NCBI GenBank assembly: GCA_040902005.1
Contig: JBBDYA010000114.1
Span: 10,180-74,179 of the forward strand
DNA from: Gemmatimonadaceae bacterium
Lineage (GTDB): Bacteria > Gemmatimonadota > Gemmatimonadetes > Gemmatimonadales > Gemmatimonadaceae
Reading direction: 5' to 3'
Length of the DNA stretch: 64,000 nt
Shown: positions 9,524 through 35,024 of the stretch, piece by piece
Numbering within the stretch: position 1 is the first letter of the stretch
How the letters are laid out: every line of letters starts with the position of its first letter
The notes under the pieces: model-generated
The model's input: only the letters and a program-made list of their open reading frames with translations
Told to the model about the DNA's origin: nothing
Database searches by the model: none
Position numbers and translations under genes: made by a program

Positions 9524-10648
9524 ATGCCCAGGCGCTCCAATTCTCCCCATGCAGCGCGCTCGACGGTACCCGCCGTGAACACGCGAGCGAGCGCGGCCGG
9601 CACCACCCGCTATGCGGAGCGGTTCGCATCCGGCTTCGTTCCCGATTTCTTCCGCGCCTCGCGCGCGGGGCTCACACTCTCGTCCGTGGCCTTCGGCACG
9701 TACCTGGGCGACAGCGACGACGCCACGGATGATCTGTACGCCGGATCGGCGCGCGAAGCGTTATCGAGCGGGATGAACGTGGTGGACACCGCGATCAACT
9801 ACCGGTGTCAGCGGTCCGAGCGGGTGATCGGGCGCGTGCTCCAGGAACTGATGGGCGAAGGGGTGCTTCGTCGCGACGAGGTGGTGCTATGTACGAAGGC
9901 GGGATACGTCCCGATGGACGGCGCGCCGCCGGAGTCGCGTCAGGCGTACGAGCAGTATCTGCGCACCGAGTATTTCGATGCAGGGGTGCTGCGCCCGGAG
10001 GACCTGGTTGGCGGCGGTCACTCGATCGCGCCCGCGTTTCTCGAGAACCAGCTGCGGCGCAGCATGCGCAACCTGGGCGTGCAGAGCATCGACTACTTCT
10101 ACATCCACAATCCGGAGCATCAGCTCACGGCGATCACGCCGGCGGAGCTTTCGACGCGGCTGCGCGCGGCGTTCGAGACGCTGGAGAATCTCGTGGCCGA
10201 GGGCGCGATCGGCGCGTACGGATGCGCCACGTGGAACGGGCTGCGGCTGCCCGCCGGAAGCAACGGACACCTGTCGCTGTACGAGCTGGCAGCGCTTGCC
10301 GGGGAGGTGGCCGGCACGGACCACCATTTCCGGATTGCGCAGCTCCCGGTGAACCTGTCGATGTCGGAGGCGGTGCGGGTGTCCACGCAGCGGGGCGCGC
10401 GCGGGCGATTGGTGCACGTGGTGGACGCGGCGGCCGAGCTGGGGATCGACCTGGTGGTAAGCGCGCCGCTGTTGCAGGGGCAGCTGGCCGAGGGGATGCC
10501 CGATCAGGTGCGTGAGATGTTCCCCGGGAAGACGGACGCGCAGCGCGCGCTGTCGTTCGCGCGCGGAGTTCCGGCGGCCGTGACCGTGGCAGTGGGGACG
10601 AGGACCGCGGCTCACGTGCGGGAGAATCTCGCGGGCGTTCGCGTATGA
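9524..10648 (+). CDS. Aldo/keto reductase family oxidoreductase
   Basis: GMNVVDTAINYR, CTKAGY and IDYFYIHNP are typical AKR motifs. The start is uncertain (ATG 9524 chosen). Confidence 0.8.
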   Translation: MPRRSNSPHAARSTVPAVNTRASAAGTTRYAERFASGFVPDFFRASRAGLTLSSVAFGTYLGDSDDATDDLYAGSAREALSSGMNVVDTAINYRCQRSERVIGRVLQELMGEGVLRRDEVVLCTKAGYVPMDGAPPESRQAYEQYLRTEYFDAGVLRPEDLVGGGHSIAPAFLENQLRRSMRNLGVQSIDYFYIHNPEHQLTAITPAELSTRLRAAFETLENLVAEGAIGAYGCATWNGLRLPAGSNGHLSLYELAALAGEVAGTDHHFRIAQLPVNLSMSEAVRVSTQRGARGRLVHVVDAAAELGIDLVVSAPLLQGQLAEGMPDQVREMFPGKTDAQRALSFARGVPAAVTVAVGTRTAAHVRENLAGVRV

Positions 10649-10706: not shown

Positions 10707-10978
10707 GCCCGTTTGCGGGGCGGGCTGTCGGGTGATCGCCCCCCTCTGACCGGTGGCTCGCCACTGGTCGTGAGCCGGTCCGCGCCGTACGTTCTGTACC
10801 CCGCCCCGACGGCGCCCGGATGTGATCGGCTAAGTGCAGATTCCGCGCGTTGTTACGTACCGGAGTGACGGGAGCGCCGAGGCGAGTAACGCCATGTTGA
10901 CGGCGGGGGCGCAGCTTCGGTGCGGAGATTCGGGTCAGGCGACAAAGTCAGTCCAGCACTTCTACCAGGAGTACGGCA

Positions 10979-11650
10979 ATGAGGGCGCAACAGGGCAGGA
11001 AGCGTGGATTCACGCTCGTTGAAACCGTGGTTACAGTTGGGATCATTGCCGCACTTGCGGCTGTGGTGTACCCGAGCGTCGTGAAACAGTTCGACAGTGC
11101 CGATCCCACCAAAGTTGCGGAGGATCTCAACAGCATTCGCACCGGAATGGAGATGTTTGGTGTGAACGTAAGGCCGCAGTCGCCGGGTGACATTGAGGAT
11201 CTTCTCATTCAGCCTGACGGCGCCGACTTCAGCTCGGTGGGCGTGGCCTATACCGCGTCCGAACAAGCGTCCTGGAATGGCCCATATCTGACTGCTTCCG
11301 TGTCGCCAGCGATAGGGCAGTACGACGCCGCAATTGTGACCGGTTTCGGTGGTACAATAGTCAACCGAACACCGCTGTTCGATCTCACTGAGGCGGGCGA
11401 GTTCACAGTGTCTGGAGACACGCTATACGACGTGAGTCCAACGACAGACGCGTCGTTCGTTGCGGTACGTATTACCGGACTGAGCGGCGTCGCCTTCAAT
11501 GCCGTAAACCTGTTACTCGACGGTCCGAACGAGGATGACGTTACTGAGCGGCGGACGCTCGGCAGACTGAGGTGCCCTCAAGTGGCCTACGCGGATAACG
11601 ACGCAAGCTGTGCAAACGCGTATTATCTGGCTGTACCGACCCGTCAATAG
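10979..11650 (+). CDS. Prepilin-type N-terminal cleavage/methylation domain protein, GspG-like (pseudo)pilin 1
   Basis: MRAQQGRKRG/FTLVETVVTVGIIAALAAVVYP is a class III signal with Glu5. The internal motif WNGPYL is present. AGGAG lies upstream. Confidence 0.85.
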   Translation: MRAQQGRKRGFTLVETVVTVGIIAALAAVVYPSVVKQFDSADPTKVAEDLNSIRTGMEMFGVNVRPQSPGDIEDLLIQPDGADFSSVGVAYTASEQASWNGPYLTASVSPAIGQYDAAIVTGFGGTIVNRTPLFDLTEAGEFTVSGDTLYDVSPTTDASFVAVRITGLSGVAFNAVNLLLDGPNEDDVTERRTLGRLRCPQVAYADNDASCANAYYLAVPTRQ

Positions 11651-11762
11651 GACCTGATTCTGTCTATCGCTCGCCGCGGACCATTCTCCGCGGCGAGCCT
11701 CTTCTGCCTGATCGTGTATAGTCCGATGGGCACCCGCACTCAGGCATGTAGTGGTTGAAGAA

Positions 11763-12344
11763 ATGAGACGTCGCACCGGCTTCATGCTGATCGAGATCGT
11801 TGTTGCGATCGCGATTCTTCTGCTGCTCGCCGCCGCGATTACGCCGGTTTTGCTCGGCGGCATCGACGCGGCGCGCATCGAGACAGGCTCCAAGGTGCTG
11901 GCCAACGTCGCCGCCGCCGTGCAGGCGTTCGACGACGACATCGGTTCAGGCGCGGGTCCGCTAGCGAATCGATCCGAGTACCCCGGCGAACTGACGCAAC
12001 TCGTGACGGCGGTCACGACGGCGCAGGACAACGTCTGCAACCGCGCGTACGACACCGGTGACGTGGGCGCGTGGAACGGACCCTACCTCGCGCAGTCCGT
12101 GGCGCCCACCGGAATCAAGGCAGCGATCGGAACGATCAACAACACCACCGTCCTCCTGAACGCCACGACGATGGCGCTGCGGGTTCCCCTCGTGACGTTC
12201 GAGGACGCGGTGGCGTTGAACGACCTCGTGGACGGAGATGGCAACACGGTGACCGGATCGCCCACCGGAAGCGTCCGGTTCGGTGCGGCGGATGGTGACG
12301 GACTGGTGACCGTGGATTACGCGGTGCCGATCCAGTCCTGCTGA
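11763..12344 (+). CDS. GspG-like (pseudo)pilin 2
   Basis: MRRRTG/FMLIEIVVAIAILLL with the motif WNGPYL. The protein ends ...AVPIQSC. Confidence 0.8.
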   Translation: MRRRTGFMLIEIVVAIAILLLLAAAITPVLLGGIDAARIETGSKVLANVAAAVQAFDDDIGSGAGPLANRSEYPGELTQLVTAVTTAQDNVCNRAYDTGDVGAWNGPYLAQSVAPTGIKAAIGTINNTTVLLNATTMALRVPLVTFEDAVALNDLVDGDGNTVTGSPTGSVRFGAADGDGLVTVDYAVPIQSC

Positions 12345-12934
12345 TGGACCGCCGCCGGATTCGTCTCCGTCCGACTCTGGTCGCGCGACGCGGCTTCACG
12401 CTCGCGGAGGTCATTGTCAGCCTGATACTCATCGCTGCGCTCGGCGCGGTGCTGGTGCCGCAAGTGGTACAGCGCCTGCGCGATGGTCAGGCGGCCGCGA
12501 TCGCGAACAACCTGAACGGCATCCGGACGGCACTGCTCGAGTACCGCAAGGCGATCGGACGGTATCCGTCGCAGCTCGCGTATCTGGCGACGCAGCCCAC
12601 CCCGGGAGCCACGGATCTGTGCGCGCGCAACGTTCCGATCGATTGGAGCGCGATGTGGCGAGGTCCGTACCTCCAGCAGGCAATCGGGGCGAGCGGCGTG
12701 AGCGTCAGAGACGCGACAATTCTCAATGCGCTCCGGCGTGAACCGGCCACCATTCCCCTGGGGCTGCTCGCCAACTTGTTCATCGACGTAACGAGCGTGG
12801 ACCAGGACGTGGCGGAGATCATCGAGCGAAGCTTCGATCCCACGGTCGATTTCGCCGCGGGAACGATTCGCTGGGTGGCGACGGGCGGCGGGCAGGGAAC
12901 GCTCAGCCTCGTGATGCCCGTGAGGGGATGCTGA
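12344..12934 (+). CDS. GspG-like (pseudo)pilin 3
   Basis: TGATG coupling to the previous gene. ...VARRG/FTLAEVIVSLILIAALGAVLVP. IRTALLEYRKAIGRYPSQL resembles the GspG core. WRGPYL is present and the protein ends ...MPVRGC. Confidence 0.8.
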   Translation: MDRRRIRLRPTLVARRGFTLAEVIVSLILIAALGAVLVPQVVQRLRDGQAAAIANNLNGIRTALLEYRKAIGRYPSQLAYLATQPTPGATDLCARNVPIDWSAMWRGPYLQQAIGASGVSVRDATILNALRREPATIPLGLLANLFIDVTSVDQDVAEIIERSFDPTVDFAAGTIRWVATGGGQGTLSLVMPVRGC

Positions 12935-12949: not shown

Positions 12950-13516
12950 CTATGCACGCTCCGCGTCGCGAAGTTCACGAACGGAATCCAGTATCCCCGG
13001 CTGGTCCTTTGCCGCGGCCAGCGGCTCCAGCCTTCCCAGGATAGCCTCCCAGTCGAGCTGGTTGCCGCGGCGCCTGGCAATGCCAACCAGGTCGGCCCGG
13101 TCGCGCGGCCGGTCGGCGAACGCCTTGAGCACGAACAGGTCTTCGGCGCTGCACAGCCGGAGAGTGGTACCTGGTTCCAGCTCAGCCAGCGCCGCGCGGT
13201 CGATCATTTCCGATTCGAATGGCAGCGCCGCAAGGGCAACGTCCACTTCGATGCCCTGTGACGTTGCCAGCAGGAGCACCCGGTGCACCAGCGCGAATGC
13301 GCGCGCATCCGCGATGCGGCCCGCGTACGCGCCGAGCAGTGCGTCGACGACCGCTTCCTCACCACCGAATCCGGTGAAGACGGAGATGTCGATATCGCGA
13401 GTTGTGCGGGGCTCGCCCCAGTGTTGCACCGCGATGCCCCCGATGAAGCAGAAGCGCAATTTCCGCGAGTCCAGCGCCGTCTGGAGGGCCGCGGCCTCGC
13501 GAAAGAGATGGATCAC
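12950..13516 (-). CDS. Nucleotidyltransferase-fold protein (AbiEii-like minimal NTase; candidate toxin)
   Basis: FIGGIAVQHWGEPRTTRDIDISV matches the GG-x(n)-R-x-[ST]-x-D-I-D NTase signature of the AbiEii/DUF-type families. Its start overlaps the stop of the upstream small gene by 4 nt. Confidence 0.55.
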   Translation of the reverse strand: MIHLFREAAALQTALDSRKLRFCFIGGIAVQHWGEPRTTRDIDISVFTGFGGEEAVVDALLGAYAGRIADARAFALVHRVLLLATSQGIEVDVALAALPFESEMIDRAALAELEPGTTLRLCSAEDLFVLKAFADRPRDRADLVGIARRRGNQLDWEAILGRLEPLAAAKDQPGILDSVRELRDAERA

Positions 13517-13746
13517 CGCCGCAGCCGCTGAAAGATCGCCTGCTGCATCACGAGTCCGGATGTCTCGGTACGCGGGGCGCCGCGCACGGCGGCGTCGAAT
13601 GCATCGGCGAGCTGCCGCAATGCGTCCGCCGTCCGAAGCCGGCGCAGTTCGTCCCGCTTGACGGATGCCAGTGCCGGACCGGCGTTGCGCCAGGTCTCCA
13701 CCCAGCGGCGCAGATCGGCGGAAGCGGATGGTGTTGGGCGAACCAT
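13513..13746 (-). CDS. Small hypothetical protein coupled to the NTase (candidate antitoxin/partner)
   Basis: ATG 13746: MVRPTPSASADLRRWVETWRNAGPALASVKRDELRRLRTADALRQLADAFD... The call rests on translational coupling to the NTase. I recognised no family. Confidence 0.4.
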   Translation of the reverse strand: MVRPTPSASADLRRWVETWRNAGPALASVKRDELRRLRTADALRQLADAFDAAVRGAPRTETSGLVMQQAIFQRLRR

Positions 13747-13796: not shown

Positions 13797-16700
13797 TCAG
13801 GGCGCATCCGATCCCGACGGTCCGACGAGCATGGCGCGCGCACCGAAAACCCAGGCTCGATCGCCTGTTGCCCGCCCGCCAATCCATGCCTGGACCTTCG
13901 CCGCGTGGCTTGGCGTGATGATTCGCAGCGTTGAGCGCCAGCGCCGCTGTCCATCCACGAAGAACGTGACGGTCGAATCGGCCTCGATGAACAGGCGCAC
14001 GTCTACCGACGCACCGACCCCGGGCGCGGGCTCCGTGTGCACTTCGCGTCCCACGGAATAGACGAAGCGCCGTGGGTCGGCGGTCCAGGTGAACGACGCA
14101 TGGCGCAGAAACTGCGGCGCGATGGCGTCGATCGTCTCCTCGGTTTCCGGAGCGACGAGTGCCACGTTCACGCTGGTGGCGGCATCGCCGCCGCTCTCAC
14201 CCGGCAGGGCCAGAGAAGCGGAAAGTTCGAGCGAAGGCAGCAACGGAAACGCCGAGCGCGACAACACGCCGCTGTCCGATTCCCTGTCCGCGCCGAGCGA
14301 GAGCGCGGATCGGCCGCTCACACTGCCGGCCCACGGACGCGGCTCTCCCAAGGCGTGCCACCGCGGGGTGACGTCGCGGCCGTTGAATGACGTCAGCGGT
14401 ACCGGCTCCGAACCGATGCGCACGAACGCCGTATCCGATCGCCAGCGTCCCACGTTCGCGACGATTTGTGCGAGACCGGACCGCCTCGCGATCAACGTGC
14501 GCCGCGTGGCCGTGCTGTCCACGGCCGGCGCGAGTATCGAAAGCGACGTGTCCATCGCCACCCATCGCACGGCATGGGCGCCGATGGAGTCGTCGAGCTG
14601 GTCGAGCGCGACGAGGGTGAGCATCGCTGAATCTCCGATCCCCGACACTCCCCCCCCCTGTACGTGCACGCGAACGCGGTCGAGATAACGCGCCTGCCCG
14701 CCACGCCAGTGCACAAGCGACAGGTTGGCGCCGCCGATGCGCACGGCGTCGCCGCCGAGTCGGGGCATCACGTACACGCCCGCGACGCCACCGCGCGTGG
14801 ACTCGAAGCCGATCAATCGTCCGTTGGGAGCGAAGGCCGCGCGATCGTCCTGCGCGGGATCTCGTGTGAGCCTCCAGAGGCGATTATCGCGAACGCCGTA
14901 TGCGTAGAGCTCCGCATTGCCATCGCGCATGCTGGTGAAGGCGAGCAGTTCCCCGTCGCCGGACCAGGCAATGTGCTGATCATCGGACGGATGCCGACTC
15001 ACGTTCTCCATGCCGCTTCCGTCGGAGAAGCTCACGAAGACCTCGCTCTGCCGATCGCTTCCCGCCAGCGCGACCCACGCGATGCGCGAGCCGTCGGGAG
15101 ACCACGCGGCTTCCGTCACTGTATGGCGCTGCGCGGTGTCGATCGGAGCGACGATGTTGCCGGCGATGTGGTGCGCGTAGAGACCGGTGGTGTAGCCGCC
15201 GCTAGGCAGGGCGTGACTGCCGATCGCGAGAAGCCAGCGGCTGTCCGGTGACCAGCCCGCGCCGACCGCATCGGCAAAAGTCGGCAGAATCGGGAGGGTG
15301 TCGCGGCGGTCCGCCGTGATGACGTACAGTCTGGTGCCCTCGGCTGTGACTCGGCTGGCGGCGACGTACTGCGCGTTCGGCGCCGCGACGCCGTTGCCCC
15401 ATGGCCGGCTAAGCGAGTCCAGCCAGACGGGACGCGACGGCGCCGGCGCGGCGCGCGCGGACAGGGTGAAGCCGGCCCGGAGATCACCGGTCACAAGTCG
15501 CAGCGTTCGTCCACCATCGCCGTCAGCGACGACAAGTGTATCGGTCGCGGACGTCGTTGCCGCTCTCGTCAGGTCACTTCGCGGCGCCAGCGTCACTGCG
15601 GAGATGACGAGTGTGGCAACGGCGGCGCCCAGCAGGAACCGCCAGTGCGGAAGCGCGCGTTCCCACCGTGTGGGTATCGGACCCGGTGGCGCTGCCTCGA
15701 CGTGCGTCGGCTCCGAACTCGCAGGGACGGCCGCGGCACCGTTCGCGGCAGCGGTGGACGAAGCGGGGGTCGCGATTCGCCGCTGCCCGGCGCCAATCGC
15801 GGTCAGGTACGATTCGATTTCCTCGCGCTCTCCTGGCGCCTGCGCGAAGGCGCGCGCCGTGCGCAGAAACTGCAATCCTTCCGGCAGGGCTCCGAATGCC
15901 AGGGCATGAAACGCGGCTTTGCGCGCGCTGTCGAACGCCTCACGGGGGTTTCCCGCCAGTGCATGGAAACGCGCGAGTTCAGCGGGGGCCGCGTGGGGTT
16001 CCCGGGTGAACGCCTCGGCAATCCACCCCCCGAGAAATGCGCGGGTGGCCTGCTCCGCGCTCGCCAGCACGACGTCGGAGGCAAGGTCCGTCGCGACGAT
16101 GCCATCGGACAGGACCTCGACCAGACCCTCGCGCTCCAGCGTTCCCACCAGCTCCGCCGCGGCAATCGAGGACACGTGCGCGGCGGCGGCTGCGGAGTCG
16201 CGGTGCACCGGGCGGCCTATCATCGCAATCACCAGCAGAAGGCGTCGCTGGGCAGAGGAGAGGCGTTGCAGTCGATCGGCGATCAGATCGCGCATCGGCA
16301 CGGGCAACTCGCCCAGTTCGTCGCCGCTCATCGCCCGCCGTGCAAGTTCGGCGAGCGATGCGGGAATCCCCTCAGCGCGCCGCGCGACACGATCGGCAAT
16401 CCGCTCCGCCACGCCAGCCGCCGTCAGTGCCGGACGCACGGCGGAGAGCGACGCCTCGAGACTGAGCGGGGCGAGCGTCAACCGTCGCGCGCGGTCACCG
16501 TGCGGCGGCGCGCTGTTGTCCGTTGGCAGCGCCAGCGCACGGAGCCGCGCGAGCAACGCCGCTCCGGCTTGCGACGCGCGCGCGGTGACCACGAACATCA
16601 CGGCCGAGCCAGCCAGCCTTGCGCTGAGGTAGAAGAGGAGATCGAGGGACGAGGGCGCGATGCTGTGCGCATCTTCCACCACGAGCATGATGCGCTGTTC

Positions 16701-17888
16701 GTACGCGGCGGCATCGATGAGCGCCGCGATCCCCTCGAAGAATCGAAGGCGCGCCGCCTCATCCTCCACGTCACTCACGGCCGGCAGGTCGAAGCTGTCG
16801 CGAAGGTCCGGGAGGAGACGCGCGGCCTCGGCGAGCAGATGACGGCTGGCGCCCGCGATCCCTGGGGCGCGGACGAGCGGGCGAAGTGCTTCGGCGAAGA
16901 CACCGAGGGGCAACTGGGCGCCGGCAGGCCGCTCGCGACCGGTGAGCACGAGCGCGCGACCAAGGGTCCTCGCGTGGCTCGCGAGTTCGCGCGTCAGGCG
17001 GGACTTGCCAGTACCGGGGTCACCTTCGATGAGCGCAAATGCGCCGGAGTCTTCACCGGTGCCGCGCCACAACGCGAGCAACTGCGATAGCTCGGCTTCG
17101 CGTCCGGCGAACGCGAGAAGGTCGGGCGAGCCCGTCGAGCCGGCAGCGGCGGGCCGTTCCGCGATCTGCCGTTGCAGGCGCGCGCCCAGTGCCTGAAGCT
17201 CTGGCGGGAGCGGTATTCCGAGCTCGGCGTCGAGGCGCTGGCCGAACTGCTGGAGCAGCTCGCGCGCCTCGATCCCCCGTCCCGCGGACACCAGCGTGGT
17301 GGCCGCGAGTTCCGCCGCCTGGGCATCGAAGGGCGCCACGCCAAGGAGTCGATTCGACCGCGCGATGGCGTCTGGCCAGTTCCCCGCATCGGCGGCGCGC
17401 GCCACCCCGTCGTGCAGGAGCTGACGGGCCCGGGCACGGAAGCGGGCGCGCTCCTGGTCGGCCCAGGAATCGAACGCCGGCTCGCCAAGCTCGCTCCTTT
17501 CCAGGTACTCACCCGAGTACAGCTCCAGCGCTTCATCGAGGCGCCCCGCGATAGCGGCCGCCTCGAACTGGGCATTGTCAATCCAGAGTTCGGCCGAGGG
17601 CACGAGTCGAACCCATTCGCGGTCTGGCGGGAGCAGATCCTCGCCGAGTGCGCCGCGGAGCCGGTGCAAAGCCTGCCGGAAGGTGTTCCGTGCCTTCGCC
17701 GGGTCGGTGTCGCGCCACAGCAGGTCGACAACCTCCTCCCTGGGCGCCTCGTGTCGTATGGAGAGGAAGCAGAGTAATGCGAGCGGCTTACCCCACCCCA
17801 TGCCCTGGGGTGTCTGGCCGGCCTCGTCAGTGAGCGACGGGACGCCAAATGTGCGGAGCCGCAGCCGACCGGCAGTGACGCGTACCAA
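13797..17888 (-). CDS. Giant bitopic regulator: OmpR/SARP-type winged helix + BTAD + P-loop AAA/STAND NTPase + helical region + one TM helix + periplasmic TolB-like PD40 beta-propeller + C-terminal beta-rich domain
   Basis: The wHTH is KPLALLCFLSIRHEAPREEVVDLLWRD...ARNTFRQALHRLRGAL. The BTAD is LELYSGEYL...FDSWADQERARFR. Walker A is GDPGTGKS and Walker B is MLVVEDAHS. The TM helix is FLLGAAVATLVISAVTLAP (about aa 750-769). PD40 repeats include WSPDSRWLLA, WSPDGSRIAWV, IAWSGDGELLAFTSMRDGNAELY and FAPNGRLIGFESTRGGVAGVYV. The annotated start is TTG, so the start is uncertain. Confidence 0.75.
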   Translation of the reverse strand: MVRVTAGRLRLRTFGVPSLTDEAGQTPQGMGWGKPLALLCFLSIRHEAPREEVVDLLWRDTDPAKARNTFRQALHRLRGALGEDLLPPDREWVRLVPSAELWIDNAQFEAAAIAGRLDEALELYSGEYLERSELGEPAFDSWADQERARFRARARQLLHDGVARAADAGNWPDAIARSNRLLGVAPFDAQAAELAATTLVSAGRGIEARELLQQFGQRLDAELGIPLPPELQALGARLQRQIAERPAAAGSTGSPDLLAFAGREAELSQLLALWRGTGEDSGAFALIEGDPGTGKSRLTRELASHARTLGRALVLTGRERPAGAQLPLGVFAEALRPLVRAPGIAGASRHLLAEAARLLPDLRDSFDLPAVSDVEDEAARLRFFEGIAALIDAAAYEQRIMLVVEDAHSIAPSSLDLLFYLSARLAGSAVMFVVTARASQAGAALLARLRALALPTDNSAPPHGDRARRLTLAPLSLEASLSAVRPALTAAGVAERIADRVARRAEGIPASLAELARRAMSGDELGELPVPMRDLIADRLQRLSSAQRRLLLVIAMIGRPVHRDSAAAAAHVSSIAAAELVGTLEREGLVEVLSDGIVATDLASDVVLASAEQATRAFLGGWIAEAFTREPHAAPAELARFHALAGNPREAFDSARKAAFHALAFGALPEGLQFLRTARAFAQAPGEREEIESYLTAIGAGQRRIATPASSTAAANGAAAVPASSEPTHVEAAPPGPIPTRWERALPHWRFLLGAAVATLVISAVTLAPRSDLTRAATTSATDTLVVADGDGGRTLRLVTGDLRAGFTLSARAAPAPSRPVWLDSLSRPWGNGVAAPNAQYVAASRVTAEGTRLYVITADRRDTLPILPTFADAVGAGWSPDSRWLLAIGSHALPSGGYTTGLYAHHIAGNIVAPIDTAQRHTVTEAAWSPDGSRIAWVALAGSDRQSEVFVSFSDGSGMENVSRHPSDDQHIAWSGDGELLAFTSMRDGNAELYAYGVRDNRLWRLTRDPAQDDRAAFAPNGRLIGFESTRGGVAGVYVMPRLGGDAVRIGGANLSLVHWRGGQARYLDRVRVHVQGGGVSGIGDSAMLTLVALDQLDDSIGAHAVRWVAMDTSLSILAPAVDSTATRRTLIARRSGLAQIVANVGRWRSDTAFVRIGSEPVPLTSFNGRDVTPRWHALGEPRPWAGSVSGRSALSLGADRESDSGVLSRSAFPLLPSLELSASLALPGESGGDAATSVNVALVAPETEETIDAIAPQFLRHASFTWTADPRRFVYSVGREVHTEPAPGVGASVDVRLFIEADSTVTFFVDGQRRWRSTLRIITPSHAAKVQAWIGGRATGDRAWVFGARAMLVGPSGSDAP

Positions 17889-18125
17889 TGTAAGTCGTTT
17901 AGTGATATAGTGTTACAGAATCGTTACTCTACATGATGATGGTATAACATGGCGGATTGGGAGTGGAAAGCAACTTCGCCATGGAAAAGGGACCAGCCAG
18001 CGGCATCGTCAGCCGGCCTCAGGCAGTAGTAACGGCGGAGGCCTGAGGGCTGATGGGCCGGTGACGACCGGGTGCGACCTTGAAGGTCAATAATCGTCAA
18101 TTGTGGACCGCCACACCGGGATCCC

Positions 18126-18740
18126 ATGGCCAGAATGTCTCAGCACGCGCAGGGAAAAGCACCGTCAAAGCGACGTCACGTTCGCGGGTTCACGCTCGCG
18201 GAGATCCTGATCGCGCTGGCGCTGATCGCGATTCTCGCGGCGGTGCTGCTGCCGACCGTGGCCGGCCAGATCCTGAAGGGAGATGCCGCACGGGTGATGC
18301 AGGATCTCGACGCCGTAAGAAGCGGTATGGACCAGTTTCTCGCTGACGTACACAGGTATCCTGGCAAGTACTCCGACCTGACCAAGGCGGTCGTTGCCAA
18401 CGACGTTGCCGACCATTCGGACATCAACGGCAATGCATATACGCCGGGCTTGGCTGGCAGATGGAGCGGGCCGTACGTCACGAAGGACACGATGAGCGGC
18501 GTCGTTGAGACCGGCTTTGGCGGAACAATTCACAACGTGTTCGTCAAGCGGCCGAACACCAACAATGTGGACTACGTCACTGTGCGGATCTTCGGGATCA
18601 CCGAGGCGGATTTTCTCCGGATCGACGAACAGATTGATGGCCCCAGCGCGACCGCCACCATTGCAAAGGAAACGGGTCTCTTCAGGTTCACGGCGGGGGT
18701 GGTAGATACGGTGAAGTTTCTCGCGACGCCGATTCAGTAG
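18126..18740 (+). CDS. GspG-like (pseudo)pilin 4
   Basis: ...KRRHVRG/FTLAEILIALALIAILAAVLLP with the motif WSGPYV. The protein ends ...LATPIQ. Confidence 0.8.
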   Translation: MARMSQHAQGKAPSKRRHVRGFTLAEILIALALIAILAAVLLPTVAGQILKGDAARVMQDLDAVRSGMDQFLADVHRYPGKYSDLTKAVVANDVADHSDINGNAYTPGLAGRWSGPYVTKDTMSGVVETGFGGTIHNVFVKRPNTNNVDYVTVRIFGITEADFLRIDEQIDGPSATATIAKETGLFRFTAGVVDTVKFLATPIQ

Positions 18741-18806
18741 TCATTGACGCAAGCGATCATTCACGCATTTTCCGGTAGCTCACTACACAAGTTCAGGAGA
18801 CAACGC

Positions 18807-19436
18807 ATGTTGAAGAATCGAGCAGGGCGGTCAGGGTTCACGCTTCCAGAAGTGCTGGTGACGGTGGCGATCGTGGCGGTGCTCGCGGCGGCCGTCGTTC
18901 CCACGGTGGTGAATCAGATCGGCAAGGGTGATGCAGCGTCGGTATCCGCAGAAATCAATTCCCTGACCGGTGCAGTGACCCAGTTCGTGACTGATACCCG
19001 GAGATATCCTGACCAGCTGGCTCATCTGAACACGCTCATATTGTCGGGGGACGATGACCTGCTGGGCACCGATTACGGCACGCGTGCCGTGGCCGGATGG
19101 AAGGGCCCCTACCTGGCGACGACGCAGGACATGGCAACCGACGATTTCACGTTCAGCAGCTTTGGCCTGGTGGCCGACAATGTCCTGATCGCCCCCGCTG
19201 CCGGCAACGGCCATCACATCACGCTGAACCTTGGCGCAACGACGACAATGTCACTGGCGACGTTGATTGCAATCGATCAGGGAATCGACGCGGGGGATGG
19301 AGTATTTGACCCTGATTGCGCCATCCCAGCAATATCAGCGAGCTCGACCAGCGGCCGTCTCACCTGGACTGAGGCTGCGGGCACGCCTTGCGTGATCACG
19401 AACATCATCTACCGGTTGGTTCCTGTCGGCTCCTAA
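18807..19436 (+). CDS. GspG-like (pseudo)pilin 5
   Basis: ATG 18807 follows AGGAGA. MLKNRAGRSG/FTLPEVLVTVAIVAVLAAAVVP with the motif WKGPYL. The protein ends ...RLVPVGS. Confidence 0.8.
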   Translation: MLKNRAGRSGFTLPEVLVTVAIVAVLAAAVVPTVVNQIGKGDAASVSAEINSLTGAVTQFVTDTRRYPDQLAHLNTLILSGDDDLLGTDYGTRAVAGWKGPYLATTQDMATDDFTFSSFGLVADNVLIAPAAGNGHHITLNLGATTTMSLATLIAIDQGIDAGDGVFDPDCAIPAISASSTSGRLTWTEAAGTPCVITNIIYRLVPVGS

Positions 19437-19806: not shown

Positions 19807-20052
19807 ATGAAACGAACCACTTTGAAGCTCGATGAGCCCCTCCTCCGCCGCCTCAAGCAGCGGGCAGCTGCCGAAGGAACGAGTCTCCAGGCTCTCGCCA
19901 ACCGGCTCCTGCGTCTGGCACTGGCGAAGCAGGAGCGCCCTCCATACACGCTCTCCCTGACTGGATGGGAAGCAACCGCGCGGCCAGGCGCGGACATCCT
20001 GGATCGCGACGCGCTGTTCGACCTGATGGACCGGGAAGGGGGAGGACGCTGA
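19807..20052 (+). CDS. vapB: Type II antitoxin, ribbon-helix-helix (VapB-like)
   Basis: MKRTTLKLDEPLLRRLKQRAAAEGTSLQALANRLLRLAL is an RHH N-terminus. The gene sits directly upstream of a PIN gene with a 3-nt gap. Confidence 0.75.
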   Translation: MKRTTLKLDEPLLRRLKQRAAAEGTSLQALANRLLRLALAKQERPPYTLSLTGWEATARPGADILDRDALFDLMDREGGGR

Positions 20053-20055
20053 GCG

Positions 20056-20490
20056 GTGCGCGCCGTGGATACCAATGTTCTCGTGTTCGCGGGGATCACC
20101 TCGAGTTCGCAGCATCTCCGCGCGCTCGAAGTGCTCCGCGAACTGAGCGAAGGCGCAGCCGCGTGGGCCATTCCCTGGCCGTGCCTGTACGAATTTCTGC
20201 GCGTCGTGACGCATCCACGTGTGTACCATCCGCCGATGCCGTACGAAGTGGCGCTACAGGACGTGCAGCGCATCATCGCCTCACCCTCGCTCGTTCTCCT
20301 GAGCGAGACGCCGCGACACGCCGAGGTCATGGCAGAAGTCATCCGTGATGGCGGAGCCACGGGCAACTTGATCCATGACGCGCATATCGTCGCGCTGTGT
20401 CTCGAGCACGGGGTGACTGAGATCGTCACTGGTGACCGCGATTTCCGGCGGTTCTCCGGCCTGAAGACATTCGATCCGTTCAGCGGATAG
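20056..20490 (+). CDS. vapC: PIN-domain ribonuclease toxin VapC
   Basis: VRAVDTNVLV carries the first acidic residue. ...LIHDAHIVALCLEHGVTEIVTGDRDFRRF is the typical PIN C-terminal motif. Confidence 0.85.
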   Translation: MRAVDTNVLVFAGITSSSQHLRALEVLRELSEGAAAWAIPWPCLYEFLRVVTHPRVYHPPMPYEVALQDVQRIIASPSLVLLSETPRHAEVMAEVIRDGGATGNLIHDAHIVALCLEHGVTEIVTGDRDFRRFSGLKTFDPFSG

Positions 20491-20667: not shown

Positions 20668-21207
20668 TCAGGGACGCGGGCGACTCTCCACGATGAACTT
20701 CCCCATCTCGAGACTCACCCCGAACCGCGCCGCGATGGCTTCCGCGCTCGCCGTGTTGATGTTCACCGCCAGCTGGTAGAACACCACCGGCGGCCACGGC
20801 GCCTGCGCATCACCCACCAGCACGGACAGGCCCGCATCAGCCATCAGCGCGCGCAGCGCGTCCACAGCCCGCACGTCGTGAAAGGCGACGTTCACCCGTG
20901 CGTTCACGTCCTGCGACAGCACGAGACTCACCTCCGCCTGCTGTGCCAGCCAGAGCACGAGGGTGCGCAGGTCGGCGTTCTGCGTGGTCAACGTGACGCG
21001 ACGGTTGCTGGCGCCGGCAAAAGGATCACGTGATGCGCGTTGGAGGGGGGGGAGGGGCACGATCGCCAGCGTATCACCCCCGGACGCGATCTCGTAGACC
21101 GGCAGGTCCGGAAGCGGGGGCCCGACCGTGACCGGCTGTGTGCGCCAGCAGCCCGAAAGACCCGCGGCAACGACAACGAGCATCAGCGCCAGCGGACGAC
21201 GGCGCAT
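20668..21207 (-). CDS. Lipoprotein with a secretin-N0/STN-like domain and a C-terminal ComEA-like helix-hairpin-helix
   Basis: MRRRPLALMLVVVAAGLSGC carries a lipobox. ADLRTLVLWLAQQAEVSLVLSQDVNARVNVAFHDVRAVDALRALMADAGL parallels the N-terminal domain of the adjacent secretin (DLGTVVRTLATRFGLQYQIDPAVHGTVNTTLRNTTLSEALDII). The C-terminal VNINTASAEAIAARFGVSLEMGKFIVESRP matches the ComEA HhH pattern NxNTAsxeeL. Confidence 0.55.
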   Translation of the reverse strand: MRRRPLALMLVVVAAGLSGCWRTQPVTVGPPLPDLPVYEIASGGDTLAIVPLPPLQRASRDPFAGASNRRVTLTTQNADLRTLVLWLAQQAEVSLVLSQDVNARVNVAFHDVRAVDALRALMADAGLSVLVGDAQAPWPPVVFYQLAVNINTASAEAIAARFGVSLEMGKFIVESRPRP

Positions 21208-21210
21208 CCG

Positions 21211-21858
21211 CTAGCGCACCCGCTCGCTCAACGCCTCGACGCGACGCCGCACATGCTCCACGTGGCCGGCAAGCCGGCCGGGCGCGGTGCGCACGAACGC
21301 GTTGTACGACCGGATGGCGCCCGCCCAGTCGCGCTCGAGCTCCAGCACCTGCCCGAGCGCGTAGTGGGCCTCGGCCACCGACGCATCCGACGCGAGCACG
21401 GCCTCCAGCAGCGCGCGAGACTCCTTCAGCGCGCCGACTGCGAGATACTGCTGCGCGAGACTCACGCGCGCGCTTGGATGCAGGGGGTCGATGCCGAGCG
21501 CGTGCTGAAACGCCGCGATCGCGTTGCTCGCCTGGCCGCGCTGCGCCAGCGCGGTGCCAAGGTTGTTCCACGCGCCGGCATTGCGCGGCGACAAACTCAC
21601 CGCTCTACGCAGCAGCGTTTCGGCGCGATCGAACTCACGCGTGGACGACAGTAGCACGCCCATGTTGTTCAGCGCGTCCACGTGATTCGGGTCCGTCGCC
21701 AGCACGCGCTCGTACGCGCCGCGGGCGGTTGCGAGGTCACCCGCGCGATGCGCCGCGACTCCCGCGGCGAATATCTGCGAGAGACTCGCCTCGCGCGCAT
21801 CCACCGCGATGTTGAGACGCCCAGGGCTCTCCGCATGCCGGACTGGCTGCGCCTGCAC
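21211..21858 (-). CDS. TPR-repeat protein (MshN-like position in the operon)
   Basis: There are several TPR units (AHRAGDLATARGAYERVLATDPNHVDALNNMGVLL..., AEAHYALGQVLELERDWAGAIRSYNAFV). The true 5' end is uncertain (see finding). Confidence 0.7.
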   Translation of the reverse strand: MQAQPVRHAESPGRLNIAVDAREASLSQIFAAGVAAHRAGDLATARGAYERVLATDPNHVDALNNMGVLLSSTREFDRAETLLRRAVSLSPRNAGAWNNLGTALAQRGQASNAIAAFQHALGIDPLHPSARVSLAQQYLAVGALKESRALLEAVLASDASVAEAHYALGQVLELERDWAGAIRSYNAFVRTAPGRLAGHVEHVRRRVEALSERVR

Positions 21859-22318
21859 GTCGCCCTGCGGTAGCGCTGCGGCGCTGTCGCGCGCAGGGCC
21901 AGCGGCAACCTGCGGCGCCTCCGGACGATCGGACGGCGCGACCGCCCGGTGCCGGCCGAACCGGCGCGGTCGTAGTGCGCGCCGAAGGCCTCGTCTGCGC
22001 TGGACGGCTGGCCACGTCGCGAAGCACCTGCGCGCTCGAATCGATCGCCGGCAACCCGGCGGCGACGTCGCTGATGAGCGGGGGCGACACGAGCGCCATC
22101 GGCTGGCGTCGCACGTCCTGCATCTTCACGAACACGACCCAGCCGGCGCCGAGGAGCACCGCGCCGCCGATGCCGATCATGAGCGCGCGCTGCCAGTTGA
22201 ACTCCCGCGCCGGTTGCGAACGCAGGGGAACCAACATCGGGGGAACGGCGGCGCTCGAGGCCGCGCGGCGCTCCTTTTCCCGCTGCGCGGCATTGGTGGC
22301 ATCGATGATGAGACTCAC
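21737..22318 (-). CDS. Bitopic membrane protein downstream of ExeA (ExeB/GspB-like position); the 3' part is probably misframed
   Basis: GTGA coupling to the exeA-like stop. MSLIIDATNAAQREKERR... with the TM helix WQRALMIGIGGAVLLGAGWVVFV. The last ~60 aa are R/G/C-rich junk that overlaps the TPR ORF by 122 nt. Confidence 0.45.
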   Translation of the reverse strand: MSLIIDATNAAQREKERRAASSAAVPPMLVPLRSQPAREFNWQRALMIGIGGAVLLGAGWVVFVKMQDVRRQPMALVSPPLISDVAAGLPAIDSSAQVLRDVASRPAQTRPSARTTTAPVRPAPGGRAVRSSGGAAGCRWPCARQRRSATAGRRAGAASPACGEPWASQHRGGCARGESLADIRRGSRGASRG

Positions 22319-23724
22319 GGCTGTGGCTCACCCGCAGGCACGACACGCCGCGTGGTGTCCGCGGTGGCCATGGCGTTGTCGGACACGGAATCCGCGGCCA
22401 GGCGGCGCGACTCGAACGCGACGCACTGCTCGGACATCGACGAATAATCAGCGGGGACTGCGCGCGTCGCGGCGACGGGAACGCGGCCGGCCGCGGCGCA
22501 GGCGCGGGCCGAGTCTCCGGCCGCGAAGAACGCCTTGGCAGTCCAGTACCGACCTTCGCCGATCGCCCATCCCGCAGGGTAATCTCGACCGAGCGTCTCG
22601 AGCGACCGCAGCGCGTCCTCGTTGGAGCCGCGCGTCAATTGCAACTGCGCGAGCCGGAGCAGTGCGTTCTCGCGCTGGCGCGATCCGGCGTAGTCGCGCG
22701 CGATGCGCGCGTAGAACTGTTCGGCCCGCACGGTGGACGGCGCGCGCGCTGCGCGCCACGCCAGCACCTCGGCGTTTCCATCCATTCCGAACCAGAGCGC
22801 GGCGAGGACCGCGGCCACGGCGGCGAGGGAGCCGCCAACCCACCACCGTCGCGAATGGCCTGAGGTGCTGAGCGTTTTCGCCGGCGCGGATGCGGCGGCC
22901 GACTCCATGCCGTCCTCGCCCTGAAGCGATGCGATGGCCTGGCGCACGTGCGCCTCCGAAATGCTGCGCGCCTGATCGGAGTAGCCAGCGAGCAACGCGC
23001 GATCCGTCGTGAGATTGATCAGACGCGGCACGCCCCGGGTGGCCGAGTGGATCAGGCGCACCGCCGTCTCCTGGAAACGCACGCGTCCCTGCGCGCCCGC
23101 CACGTTGAGGCGGTGGTAGAGATAGCGCCCGGTTTCGTCCTGCGTGAGATGCGTGAGCGTGCAGCGCACCGACACGCGCTGATCGAGCTGCGCCATCTGC
23201 GGCGTGCGGATCAGCGCCAGCAGCTCCGGCTGGCCCACGAGCACGATCTGAATCAGCTTTTCGCGCTCGGTCTCCAGGTTCGAGAGCACGCGGATCTGCT
23301 CCAGAAACTCCGTGGAGAGATGCTGCGCTTCATCGAAGATCGCGATGCACGTCCGTCCGTTCGCGAGCTGCTGGAGCAGGTAGGTGTTGAGCCGGTCGAG
23401 CAGCTCCTTGCGCGACGTGATGGTGGTGTCGCCCAACCCGAACTCCGACAGCAGCGCCTGGAGCATCTCCACGCCGTTGAGGAACGGATTGAAGAGCAGC
23501 GCCACGCGGAAGCGTTCCGGGTCCAGCTTCTCGAGTAGGTCGCGGCAGAGGGTGGTCTTCCCCGTGCCGGGCGCGCCCGTGACGAGCATGAATCCTTCCT
23601 TCTGCCCGATGCCGTAGCGCAGCGACTCCTCGGCAACGCGATACTGGTCGGACTGAAAGACGAAGCGAGGATTCGGCGTGAGCGAGAACGGCTTTTCCGT
23701 CAATCCGAAAAACTGTTCGTACAT
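22315..23724 (-). CDS. ExeA/GspA/MshM-type AAA ATPase with a TM segment and a periplasmic TPR-like domain
   Basis: MYEQFFGLTEKPFSLTPNPRFVFQSDQYRVAEESLRYGIGQKEGFMLVTGAPGTGKTTLCR is the hallmark ExeA N-terminus with a Walker A motif. Walker B is CIAIFDEAQHL. A TM helix (WWVGGSLAAVAAVLAALWF) is followed by a YbgF-like TPR region. No peptidoglycan-binding domain is present. Confidence 0.85.
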   Translation of the reverse strand: MYEQFFGLTEKPFSLTPNPRFVFQSDQYRVAEESLRYGIGQKEGFMLVTGAPGTGKTTLCRDLLEKLDPERFRVALLFNPFLNGVEMLQALLSEFGLGDTTITSRKELLDRLNTYLLQQLANGRTCIAIFDEAQHLSTEFLEQIRVLSNLETEREKLIQIVLVGQPELLALIRTPQMAQLDQRVSVRCTLTHLTQDETGRYLYHRLNVAGAQGRVRFQETAVRLIHSATRGVPRLINLTTDRALLAGYSDQARSISEAHVRQAIASLQGEDGMESAAASAPAKTLSTSGHSRRWWVGGSLAAVAAVLAALWFGMDGNAEVLAWRAARAPSTVRAEQFYARIARDYAGSRQRENALLRLAQLQLTRGSNEDALRSLETLGRDYPAGWAIGEGRYWTAKAFFAAGDSARACAAAGRVPVAATRAVPADYSSMSEQCVAFESRRLAADSVSDNAMATADTTRRVVPAGEPQP

Positions 23725-23740
23725 CTGCTGCTCGCTGCTC

Positions 23741-25393: not shown

Positions 25394-25394
25394 G

Positions 25395-25877
25395 TTATGG
25401 CCTGACCGTGGACATGGTGAGCGCGCGGTGCTGCCCGTTTCGCTCCATCACGGCGACGCGGTCCGCGCGGATGGCGGTGATACGCGCGCCGTCCGACAAC
25501 ATGTCGCCGACACTTACCACGGTACCGTCAATCACCGCGACAGGTCTGTCATCCGCAATAAGGATCGCAGTCAACTGCCGTGTGCGCCTGGATGCACTAA
25601 CAGTAGGAGTGCCCGGCGTCGGCGCAACGTCTAGTTGGCGGCGTGCCGAGACGAATGGGTCGAATTGGAGGCGAACTTCCGGGCGATCGAAGGGCAAACC
25701 GACCAGCCCCGGCGTCATGAACGCACCAACGTCGTCCATCGCGTCGTCGCGTGCCGTCGCCGGCCCGCGCGGGTCGGCCGACAGTTGCTCAACCGTCAGG
25801 GCGACCAGCGCCGCGGTCACCAGTAGCGCCGCGTTCCAGAGATGACCGAAGAGCGTTTGGGGGGGTTGGTGCGCCAT
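25395..25877 (-). CDS. PilP/GspC/MshK-like periplasmic component
   Basis: An N-terminal TM helix (LWNAALLVTAALVALTV) is followed by a C-terminal beta domain, LTAILIADDRPVAVIDGTVVSVGDMLSDGARITAIRADRVAVMERNG, which is typical of the PilP/HR domain. Confidence 0.55.
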   Translation of the reverse strand: MAHQPPQTLFGHLWNAALLVTAALVALTVEQLSADPRGPATARDDAMDDVGAFMTPGLVGLPFDRPEVRLQFDPFVSARRQLDVAPTPGTPTVSASRRTRQLTAILIADDRPVAVIDGTVVSVGDMLSDGARITAIRADRVAVMERNGQHRALTMSTVRP

Positions 25878-26460
25878 TTGGATAGGTGAGTTGAAATACG
25901 GCCAGCGAGATCCGGTGCCTGCTGCCTCCGTCCTGTCGCACCAGACTCAGTTGCGTCGCCGCGGCCGACGGCGGAAGCTGACCGAGAAAGGCAATCACCG
26001 ACTGCATTCCACCGCGACCTTCGACGACGAGACCGAAGGGTGCCGGCGTACGGCCGATCCCCCCGGTAGAAAGACGCGTCTCCAGCCCAGTTGTATCAGA
26101 AGGGCCGACGAGGACCCGCACGTCCTGCAGCCCGGCGGACTCTGCCGCACGTGCCACGGAGCGCGTCACCCCGAGACGCTCTTCCTCCCCGACCCCCAGG
26201 TTCTGGAGCTCCATCCAAGTTCGGCGCCACGCAATGGACTCCGCGGCAACAGCAGGCTCATACCGCCGCCTCAGGTCCGCGAACCCCACGAGTGCCGCCT
26301 GGACCCGGGTAATCTCCGCGCGGCGGGCCGCTCCGCGACGAGTGGCGTTGACCGCGGCCCACGCGAGGACGGCGATCGAGAGCACGGCGGCGACCAGGCG
26401 CGTCCAGGCAGGGTCGATCGGTGGAAGGCGCAGCGCGCCGACGGAGAATGACGGTGCCAT
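25789..26460 (-). CDS. PilO/GspM/MshJ-like bitopic component
   Basis: TGATG coupling. The TM helix is LVAAVLSIAVLAWAAV, followed by a coiled segment and a ferredoxin-like tail (...GMQSVIAFLGQLPPSAAATQLSLVRQDGGSRHRISLAVFQLTYP). The 3' end overlaps the next gene by 89 nt. Confidence 0.5.
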   Translation of the reverse strand: MAPSFSVGALRLPPIDPAWTRLVAAVLSIAVLAWAAVNATRRGAARRAEITRVQAALVGFADLRRRYEPAVAAESIAWRRTWMELQNLGVGEEERLGVTRSVARAAESAGLQDVRVLVGPSDTTGLETRLSTGGIGRTPAPFGLVVEGRGGMQSVIAFLGQLPPSAAATQLSLVRQDGGSRHRISLAVFQLTYPNGAPTPPNALRSSLERGATGDRGAGRPDG

Positions 26461-29125: not shown

Positions 29126-29138
29126 GCGGTCTCCGGCC

Positions 29139-34949: not shown

Positions 34950-35024
34950 GCTCAAAGCTACGCCGCAAGTCTCGAAGCGTAAGGCGCTTCATGTCCGTGG
35001 CGCAACGCCAAATATTACAACATG

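Follow-up and report, generated by a model that had tools for sequence, protein, structure and literature searches.

A stretch of 64,000 nucleotides (nt) from a Gemmatimonadaceae bacterium (contig JBBDYA010000114.1 of assembly GCA_040902005.1), called the window in what follows, holds the whole gene cluster of an MSHA-like type IV filament, about 20 kb long, between positions 10979 and 30884. Embedded among the pilin genes of this cluster is a gene (13797-17888, minus strand) for a protein of 1363 amino acids (aa), here called the regulator, in which a SARP-type DNA-binding domain, a STAND-type NTPase, a transmembrane helix and a large, presumably periplasmic part follow one another. An original prediction, made from the sequence alone, had proposed this architecture and had named the protein as a candidate regulator of the filament genes. 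The regulator is described here together with its relatives in other Gemmatimonadota and with a phased triple repeat that lies upstream of the pilin operons. Coordinates are collected in Table 1.

The regulator and its family

The TTG codon at 17888 is the sole start codon upstream of codon 30, the next in-frame start, and initiation at codon 30 would drop conserved N-terminal strands. The G+C content of third codon positions (GC3) is about 0.8 in a single frame along the entire open reading frame (ORF), which excludes a frameshift, split or fusion artefact. The predicted ORF has thus been borne out, and the split or frameshift of two genes that had been considered at the time was looked for: there is one ORF here, as in more than 120 homologues. 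An identical database record exists (P0001, 'MAG: AAA family ATPase [Gemmatimonadaceae bacterium]'), and the existing labels for the family are only 'AAA family ATPase' or 'SARP family transcriptional activator'.

The full-length homologues, more than 120 in number, show identities of 37-59% and lengths of 1250-1460 aa, and all the named ones belong to Gemmatimonadota. A scan of one genome per species gave 31 confirmed regulator loci, all in this phylum and essentially one per genome, and the complete architecture is retained in Longimicrobiales and other deep branches. Judged from these sequences, the regulator family is conserved across the whole phylum. Full-text literature searches brought up neither an account of a protein of this kind nor one of how pili are regulated in Gemmatimonadota.

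The N-terminal region carries the features of SARP proteins, that is, an OmpR-type winged helix at the N-terminus and a BTAD domain directly after it. The BTAD domain is recognised by Pfam at aa 113-238 (E 1.4e-8, 35.7 bits vs a cutoff of 22.1). The winged helix gives no match to Pfam Trans_reg_C at E<=0.1. A profile of the family matches AfsR with E 4e-12 from the first β-strand through the P-loop, and also EmbR with E 8e-4. An AlphaFold2 model of the cytoplasmic part was obtained (aa 1-712; predicted local distance difference test, pLDDT, 86), in which strands 9-20, helices 34-81 and a wing at 92-103 follow in strand-helix-helix-helix-wing order. Foldseek relates the modelled SARP domain to AfsR (8k60; TM-score 0.66-0.69, identity 26-27%) and also to EmbR. 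According to sequence profile and model, winged helix and BTAD together are a SARP domain.

The recognition helix, KARNTFRQALHRLR (aa 65-78), is the most conserved stretch of the whole protein. Its family pattern is KARN.FRQALHRLR, and residues R67, N68, F70, R71, Q72, L74, H75, R76 and R78 are invariant in 42 sequences. When residues are counted by hand on the profile alignment, Q72 and R76 align with T88 and R92 of AfsR, which contact bases (PMC10936776).

The central part is matched by Pfam AAA_16 at aa 260-430 (E 8e-20, 72 bits). Its Walker A (GDPGTGKS, 289-296) and Walker B (VVEDAH, about 402-407) motifs are nearly invariant across the family. In the model, a disordered linker after BTAD leads to a P-loop α/β domain, a helical domain and a winged-helix domain (aa 563-599), an order by which the central part is, as modelled, a STAND NTPase. 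Foldseek matches of this module include a STAND-TPR protein (6mfv), MalT (8bob), plant NLRs (the NRC2/NRC3 and Roq1 resistosomes) and Avs3. The position in which STAND proteins usually carry their sensor is filled here by a short helical arm, the transmembrane helix and the periplasmic part. The proposed combination of winged helix, BTAD and P-loop NTPase is therefore confirmed by Pfam, family profile, models and Foldseek, the winged helix being the one element without a Pfam match.

A single transmembrane helix had been placed at about aa 750-769 (nt ~15582-15644), and aa 751-769, FLLGAAVATLVISAVTLAP, are indeed the only clearly transmembrane-like segment of the regulator. The same position holds the most hydrophobic segment in 38 of 42 homologues while the sequence itself diverges, and hydrophobicity that is kept despite sequence drift is expected of a true transmembrane helix. 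From the types of domain on its two sides, the N-terminal ~750 aa would be cytoplasmic and the C-terminal ~590 aa periplasmic. The protein had also been called ToxR-like. This holds for the topology, an N-terminal cytoplasmic winged helix, one transmembrane helix and a periplasmic C-terminal domain, but not for the head, which is a SARP domain followed by a STAND NTPase that ToxR lacks. As to homology with ToxR, TcpP or CadC, no ToxR or CadC entry occurs among the PDB sequence matches or the structure matches listed, and the winged helix is matched best by AfsR and EmbR.

The model of aa 771-1363 is all-β (pLDDT 88.5). It begins with a propeller (pLDDT ~90) of about six blades, as counted from the model strands, which is matched by Pfam PD40 (E 6e-16) and by a TolB profile (E 1e-32) and has TolB proteins as top Foldseek matches (E 3e-13). 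However, the TolB equivalog TIGR02800 reaches 77 bits vs a cutoff of 343 and is covered at model positions 196-319 of 418, that is, over a few blades. The regulator is not a TolB, and its propeller simply resembles that of TolB. The Ig-like domain that follows owes its name to a reading of the strand pattern, and the labels of both C-terminal domains come solely from the model. In 16 family members, a Pfam search of the last ~300 aa gave no family, with one marginal Big_1 and one marginal Laminin_G_3 match.

A lectin-like fold of the C-terminal β-sandwich is suspected from the model but not established. Foldseek matches of the whole periplasmic model are dominated by the propeller; sialidases that combine propeller and lectin domains also matched, with root-mean-square deviations >20 Å, so that they do not settle the fold of the C-terminal module. 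An exhaustive HMMER search of 1.84 billion representative proteins with this module gave only 96 relatives, in which the match lies at the C-terminal end of proteins of ~1300-1460 aa or in shorter proteins, taken as fragments. The module thus appears to be exclusive to the family at the sequence level. The exhaustive search replaced a word-indexed search with the C-terminal 304 aa, which had returned one fragment and missed the parent protein, and whose negatives are unreliable for this type of query. Altogether, the TolB-like PD40 propeller and the β-rich C-terminal domain foreseen over ~590 aa have been verified by Pfam PD40, the TolB profile and the model.

A phased triple repeat upstream of the pilin operons

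When the divergent intergenic regions of the loci are set side by side, GTTAC pentamers stand out. Their density is 6.6 per kb in these regions vs 0.39 elsewhere in the loci (17-fold), and the spacings between copies peak at 11, 21 and 32 nt (31, 28 and 26 pairs), most other spacings having 1-3 pairs and none more than 5. A 46-nt weight matrix was built from 22 sites and used to scan 527 kb (the 31 loci and the window) at a threshold of 12 bits. The scan gave 46 matches at >=12 bits vs 0 in shuffled DNA, and all of them are in pilin-upstream regions. Eleven of these matches, in 11 loci, lie upstream of the more distant pilin operon, the first pilin of which is of the GFTL(I/V)E type, and none of them had been used in the matrix. 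Pilin genes that are second in an operon have negative matrix scores.

Read toward the pilin gene, the predicted operator is GTAAC-N16-GTAAC-N6-GTAAC-N10-xAxxxT, with repeats at 0, 21 and 32 nt. In the hexamer that starts exactly 10 nt past the last pentamer, position 2 (-11) is A and position 6 (-7) is T, each in 30 of 32 sites and against a genomic content of about 17% for either base; a -10 element is recognised above all by these two positions. When the hexamer is numbered -12 to -7, the three pentamers span -59/-55, -38/-34 and -27/-23. The arrangement was also found in a hold-out locus, L036, which had never been used before and whose regulator is 54% identical: one of its pilin operons is preceded by GTAAC-N16-GTAAT-N6-GTGAC-N10-GACCTT and the other by GTGAC-N16-GTAAC-N6-GTGAC-N10-GACTTT. 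The triple repeat and the regulator gene occur together in every locus examined.

In SARP-dependent promoters, direct repeats are 11 or 22 bp apart and the 3' repeat is 8 bp from the -10 element (PMC10936776). In the AfsR transcription complex, a pair of adjacent SARP protomers covers two 11-bp repeats between -40 and -19, where a usable -35 element would otherwise lie (PMC10936776). The published spacing is found beside the regulator gene, 10 nt past a pentamer being equal to 8 nt past a heptamer. The two proximal repeats (P2 and P1) occupy the promoter positions of the afs box, and the third repeat lies two helical turns further upstream.

In the window, the composite signature (a non-negative matrix score plus xAxxxT at the fixed offset, both strands) occurs twice in 64 kb vs ~0.1 expected from shuffles. 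Site A lies 44 nt before the ATG of pilin 4, with a predicted transcription start at ~18088, and has the arrangement and the -10 hexamer of L002 and the hold-out L036. Site C lies 61 nt before the ATG of pilin 1, with a predicted start at ~10924. A canonical sigma-70 -35/-10 scan of both pilin upstream regions found no promoter, which is read as activator dependence and not as promoter absence.

The role proposed for the regulator in the original prediction is strengthened by the phased triple repeat and by the -10 element at a fixed distance in the pilin promoters. Since the recognition helix and the motif are both invariant, and the conserved part of the cluster showed no further regulator gene, the regulator is the obvious candidate to bind the repeats. 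OmpR/PhoB-type regulators use direct repeats phased at 10-11 bp as well, and the repeats could then belong to another protein encoded elsewhere, such as an OmpR-family response regulator, the regulator itself having other DNA targets or none. However, motif and gene co-occur throughout the loci, the motif is found nowhere else in the 527 kb, and a conserved recognition helix in a cluster devoid of other evident regulators parallels the conserved motif. A foreign binder is therefore very unlikely, and the regulator is taken as the probable ligand of the repeats.

Another triple repeat, Site B, faces the regulator gene itself. It is the best matrix match in the window (22.6 bits) and the sole exact GTTAC-N6-GTTAC in 64 kb. 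The last T is missing from its -10 element, and transcription is predicted to begin at the TTG start codon itself, which would make the message leaderless. A similar element lies before the regulator gene of L036 (about 9930-10000), where the gene has an ATG start and a GGAGG ribosome-binding site. No regulator-facing site was found in other clades. Autoregulation through Site B is possible for this subclade only; as a general feature it was rejected on account of the defective -10 element, the start on the TTG codon and the other clades without a site. The upstream second sites of L005-L008, L013 and L030 were likewise rejected as autoregulatory, because they face the pilin gene.

Those second sites characterise one clade (L005 9700-9894, L008 9688-9883, L013 9681-9883; also L006, L007 and L030), in which two complete triple repeats, ~150 bp apart, precede the divergent pilin gene. 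Each has its own good -10 element (for instance GATAAT or GATATT) and both face the pilin gene, which points to tandem promoters with a 5' untranslated region of ~200 nt for the distal one. The proximal copy of L006 and L007 has a 10-nt instead of an 11-nt spacing. Three nearly identical 46-nt copies of the operator are present in L020 (299-344, 1071-1116 and 1188-1233), the only locus with a pilin gene on the strand of the regulator. The operator region may thus have mediated a duplication or inversion at this locus.

The filament gene cluster and its surroundings

All five pilin genes of the window carry G↓F(T/M)L.E N_methyl motifs. The arrangement first described, with pilins 4 and 5 divergent from the regulator gene and pilins 1-3 downstream of it, agrees with the N_methyl matches and the gene calls. 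In the other loci, pilins were scanned for as class-III signal peptides (G↓FTLxE plus a hydrophobic helix). Of the 27 loci, window included, whose upstream flank is 1 kb or longer, 26 have a pilin gene that is divergent from the regulator gene and within 600 nt of it. The linkage expected in related genomes is therefore nearly universal (25 of 26 related loci, plus the window). Where the downstream flank reaches 1.5 kb or more, as in 23 loci, more pilins occur at most 7 kb downstream of the regulator gene in 17, nearly all of these pilins on the opposite strand.

The order of the cluster is fixed: MshE, GspF, two unknown ORFs, GspC/PilP, MshL, AAA_22, TPR, a 179-aa ORF, pilins, regulator, and more pilins. 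It is based on the gene tables of two relatives and on tblastn of every window gene against all loci, and the machinery genes keep the same order in L036 and 10-24 other loci.

Table 1. Features of the filament locus, in window coordinates (aa, residues of the regulator)
Feature	Position	Strand	Basis or remarks
Site C, predicted operator/promoter of pilins 1-3	10865-10917	+	Composite match; GTGAC 10865-69, N16, GTAAC 10886-90, N6, TTGAC 10897-901, N10, CAGCTT 10912-17
Pilin genes 1 (10979-11650), 2 (about 11784-12344) and 3 (12344-12934)	10979-12934	+	N_methyl motifs; convergent with regulator gene
Regulator gene	13797-17888	-	1363 aa, TTG start; one ORF, uniform GC3
C-terminal β-sandwich (aa ~1163-1354, ~190 residues)	13827-14402	-	Model strands 393-584 (model numbering); no Pfam family
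Immunoglobulin (Ig)-like seven-strand domain (aa ~1069-1158)	14415-14684	-	Model strands 299-388 (model numbering); no Pfam family
TolB-like PD40 β-propeller (aa ~784-1062)	14703-15539	-	Pfam PD40, TolB profile, model, Foldseek
Single transmembrane helix (aa 751-769)	15582-15638	-	Kyte-Doolittle 2.1
Ala/Pro/Ser-rich flexible tether (aa ~698-750)	15639-15797	-	pLDDT <50 from aa 704; low-complexity sequence
Short helical-repeat arm (aa ~601-697)	15798-16088	-	Model helices, pLDDT ~90; no Pfam family
STAND-type NTPase module (aa ~260-600)	16089-17111	-	Pfam AAA_16, Foldseek, model secondary structure
BTAD helical domain (aa ~104-243)	17160-17579	-	Pfam BTAD, model helices 104-243, AfsR and EmbR matches
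OmpR-type winged helix (aa ~9-103)	17580-17864	-	AfsR profile alignment, model secondary structure, Foldseek to 8k60/2fez
Site B, triple repeat facing the regulator gene	17896-17948	-	GTTAT-N16-GTAAC-N6-GTAAC, then TAAACG
Site A, predicted operator/promoter of pilins 4-5	18029-18081	+	Composite match; GTAAC 18029-33, N16, CTGAT 18050-54, N6, GTGAC 18061-65, N10, GACCTT 18076-81
Pilin genes 4 (18126-18740) and 5 (about 18807-19436)	18126-19436	+	N_methyl E 1e-7 and 5e-7, weak T2SSG; divergent from regulator gene
Filament machinery operon	20668-30884	-	Pfam, NCBIfam
TPR protein	21211-21858	-	Followed by the 179-aa ORF
AAA_22 MshM/ExeA-like ATPase	22315-23724	-	AAA_22, 95 bits
MshL-like secretin	23741-25393	-	
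GspC/PilP-like protein	25395-25877	-	
GspF/PilC-type platform protein	27917-29125	-	Followed by two unknown ORFs
MshE-type ATPase (GspE/MshE-type)	29139-30884	-	

As a fixed member of this cluster, the regulator might be a structural or assembly factor, in which the winged helix would be vestigial. ExeA/GspA proteins have the same topology, a P-loop ATPase in the cytoplasm being joined by one transmembrane helix to a periplasmic domain that engages the envelope, and the regulator gives a match to AAA_22, the principal domain of the GspA/ExeA-MshM type, but this match stays below threshold (24.2 bits vs a cutoff of 27) and AAA_16 is far stronger. In addition, the cluster has its own, separate AAA_22 MshM/ExeA-like protein, the recognition helix is the best conserved part of the regulator, and a matching operator exists. 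An assembly role was rejected on the separate protein, the helix and the operator, and it is extremely improbable in comparison with a role in transcription.

The MshE-type ATPase contains an MshEN domain and an MshE-related cyclic di-GMP (c-di-GMP) motif (NF053729, 58.5 bits vs a cutoff of 38). Judging from this motif, filament assembly is probably gated by c-di-GMP, separately from transcriptional control. In one clade, the two downstream pilin blocks are separated by a gene (L035 15293-18100; L035 is on the same contig as L008) for a 935-aa protein that has no Pfam match and no counterpart in the window. This large protein could belong to the filament tip or be associated with minor pilins.

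Two further minus-strand genes lie immediately upstream of the gene for the MshE-type ATPase. One of them (31014-32093) is the PD40 protein that had been noted just upstream of the gspE-type gene, and it is as described; it has five PD40 repeats and a signal peptide ending in TSGAC with a Cys that looks lipoprotein-type. The other (32168-33763) codes for an S41 C-terminal-processing peptidase with a PDZ domain. Just beyond it, an ORF at 34098-34955 on the minus strand matches Pfam RPA (replication initiator protein A) with E 5e-18, which hints at a plasmid-derived or integrated element beside the filament cluster.

Each end of the regulator-pilin block is marked, exactly at the junction, by a toxin-antitoxin pair. 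The first (12950-13746, minus strand) consists of an AbiEii-type nucleotidyltransferase and a 77-aa partner, and the second (19807-20490, plus strand) of a ribbon-helix-helix antitoxin and a PIN toxin. None of 34 related loci contains a counterpart of either pair, which indicates that both are recent insertions into the conserved cluster.

Proposed mode of action and comparison with known systems

The regulator is probably a membrane-tethered, one-component SARP/STAND activator of pilin transcription that answers a periplasmic cue. SARP protomers would bind the three phased GTAAC repeats near -57, -36 and -25 of both pilin-operon promoters, which have a -10 but no -35 element, and would recruit RNA polymerase as AfsR does at the afs box. 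The cue (envelope, surface or filament state) would be received by the sensor of ~590 residues, made up of the propeller, the Ig-like domain and the family-specific β-sandwich. The NTPase module, in which ATP would have a role, could couple it to oligomerisation and to promoter occupancy on the repeats. The disordered tether of ~50 residues would let the DNA-binding heads reach promoters near the membrane.

Binding to the same repeats could also be compatible with repression, or with a dual role at the pilin promoters. The repeats cover -38 to -23 and overlap the -35 region, where a bound protein would occlude RNA polymerase, and the loss of GSU1771, a SARP-type protein of Geobacter, raises pilA expression in planktonic cells (PMC10599522). 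However, the pilin promoters have no -35 element and weak -10 hexamers such as GACCTT, as is typical of activator dependence, and their geometry equals that of SARP-activated promoters (PMC10936776). Repression is accordingly regarded as improbable, and activation is preferred.

The long disordered tether on the cytoplasmic side of the transmembrane helix invites a different scheme, in which the membrane-bound form would be inactive and a periplasmic cue would trigger a proteolysis that frees the SARP-STAND part, the only form to bind pilin promoters. Other membrane-bound transcription factors undergo regulated proteolysis of a similar kind. In Vibrio, the turnover of TcpP involves tail-specific S41 proteases, and in the window both the S41 peptidase and the PD40 lipoprotein adjoin the cluster. 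No S41 homologue was found within the related loci that were fetched, most of which end at mshE. ToxR-type regulators function while tethered, and no mark of a cleavage site is seen in the sequence. Release by proteolysis is thus rather unlikely, and a regulator that acts on DNA from the membrane is favoured.

Some observations weigh against the tethered activator. The positive-inside signal is weak (about 3 Lys/Arg before the transmembrane helix vs 2 after), and the Walker A lysine is replaced by arginine in a close homologue (P0002). The pilin sites of the window are degenerate, with 11.0 and 11.6 bits vs 28-39 for the sites that built the matrix, and P2 of Site A is CTGAT. The matrix sites had been picked with a regular expression from regions of the same type, a circularity that is mitigated by the distant-operon sites and L036, which were not used in the matrix. 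The pentamer GTWAC is nearly palindromic, and the orientation of the repeats rests on the flanking bases and the position of the -10 element. To our knowledge, a STAND NTPase that receives its signal by way of one transmembrane helix has not been described. Finally, the analogy with GSU1771 points to repression.

Among characterised proteins, AfsR of Streptomyces coelicolor comes closest; it counts as a 'large' SARP and is composed of SARP, NOD/STAND and TPR parts (PDB 8k60, 8hvr). AfsR and the regulator share winged helix, BTAD, STAND NTPase and helical repeat, in the same order, and the predicted operator agrees with the afs box in its phased direct repeats, their promoter positions and their distance to the -10 element. 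AfsR is a soluble, actinobacterial protein with a long TPR sensor, controlled by phosphorylation and devoted to secondary metabolism. In contrast, the regulator belongs to Gemmatimonadota, is linked to pilins, has an NTPase that matches Pfam AAA_16 and has a short helical arm, a transmembrane helix and a periplasmic part of ~590 aa. Its predicted operator consists of three repeats (0, 21 and 32 nt), whereas AfsR has two.

ToxR, TcpP and CadC likewise place an OmpR-type winged helix at a cytoplasmic N-terminus and a C-terminal sensor in the periplasm, with one transmembrane helix between them, and they act on DNA from the membrane. The likeness is one of topology only, since they are proteins of about 200-500 aa with a short linker, no BTAD or NTPase, and unrelated periplasmic domains. 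A DNA-binding domain governed by a STAND NTPase, as proposed here, is also found in STAND transcription factors such as MalT, but MalT has a C-terminal LuxR-type helix-turn-helix and a cytoplasmic ligand, whereas the regulator has an N-terminal SARP domain and a presumed extracytoplasmic sensor. TolB of the Tol-Pal system gives the best sequence and structure match to the propeller. The region before the propeller of TolB is unmatched, and in the regulator, unlike in TolB, the propeller is fused to a transcription factor.

With respect to pilin control, the PilS-PilR system of Pseudomonas adjusts transcription of the major pilin gene pilA from a membrane-embedded sensor. It is a two-component, sigma-54-dependent system without homology to the regulator, which is a single polypeptide acting, as proposed, on promoters that look sigma-70-type. 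In Geobacter sulfurreducens, GSU1771 affects pilA expression and binds the promoter of pulF, a type II secretion gene (PMC10599522). It resembles the regulator in being a SARP-type protein outside Actinobacteria with a pilin-linked effect. However, GSU1771 is soluble and described with a receiver domain, has no STAND, transmembrane helix or periplasmic part, and is a global regulator outside the pilin cluster.

What is known of SARP and STAND regulators concerns soluble proteins that respond to signals from within the cytoplasm, for the most part in the control of actinobacterial antibiotics. What is new here, established in silico, is a SARP-STAND protein joined to a transmembrane helix and a large, presumed periplasmic sensor whose C-terminal module is peculiar to the family, the constant position of its gene in the MSHA-like filament cluster throughout the phylum, and a predicted operator and promoter definition for the pilin operons. 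It is tentatively suggested, at somewhat less than an even chance, that the NTPase is an NLR-like STAND switch, and would be the first of its kind, that receives an extracytoplasmic signal through the single transmembrane helix, the whole pathway from cue to RNA polymerase being contained in one polypeptide. Unassembled pilins, a surface glycan or surface contact, sensed by the propeller together with the C-terminal module of the family, which may be lectin-like, would then be candidate signals. The regulator offers a small system in which a model of signalling across the membrane into an NLR-like switch can be put to the test, with a precisely predicted output of two promoters, a 37-bp operator and transcription starts near 18088 and 10924.

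Gemmatimonadota are abundant in soil and have almost no genetics. If the suggestion above holds, such control by a single polypeptide appears to be the usual means by which these bacteria govern their MSHA-like filament. The operator definition is directly usable for annotating pilin promoters in Gemmatimonadota genomes, and the regulator would provide a first handle on how members of this phylum regulate their adhesion or secretion filaments.

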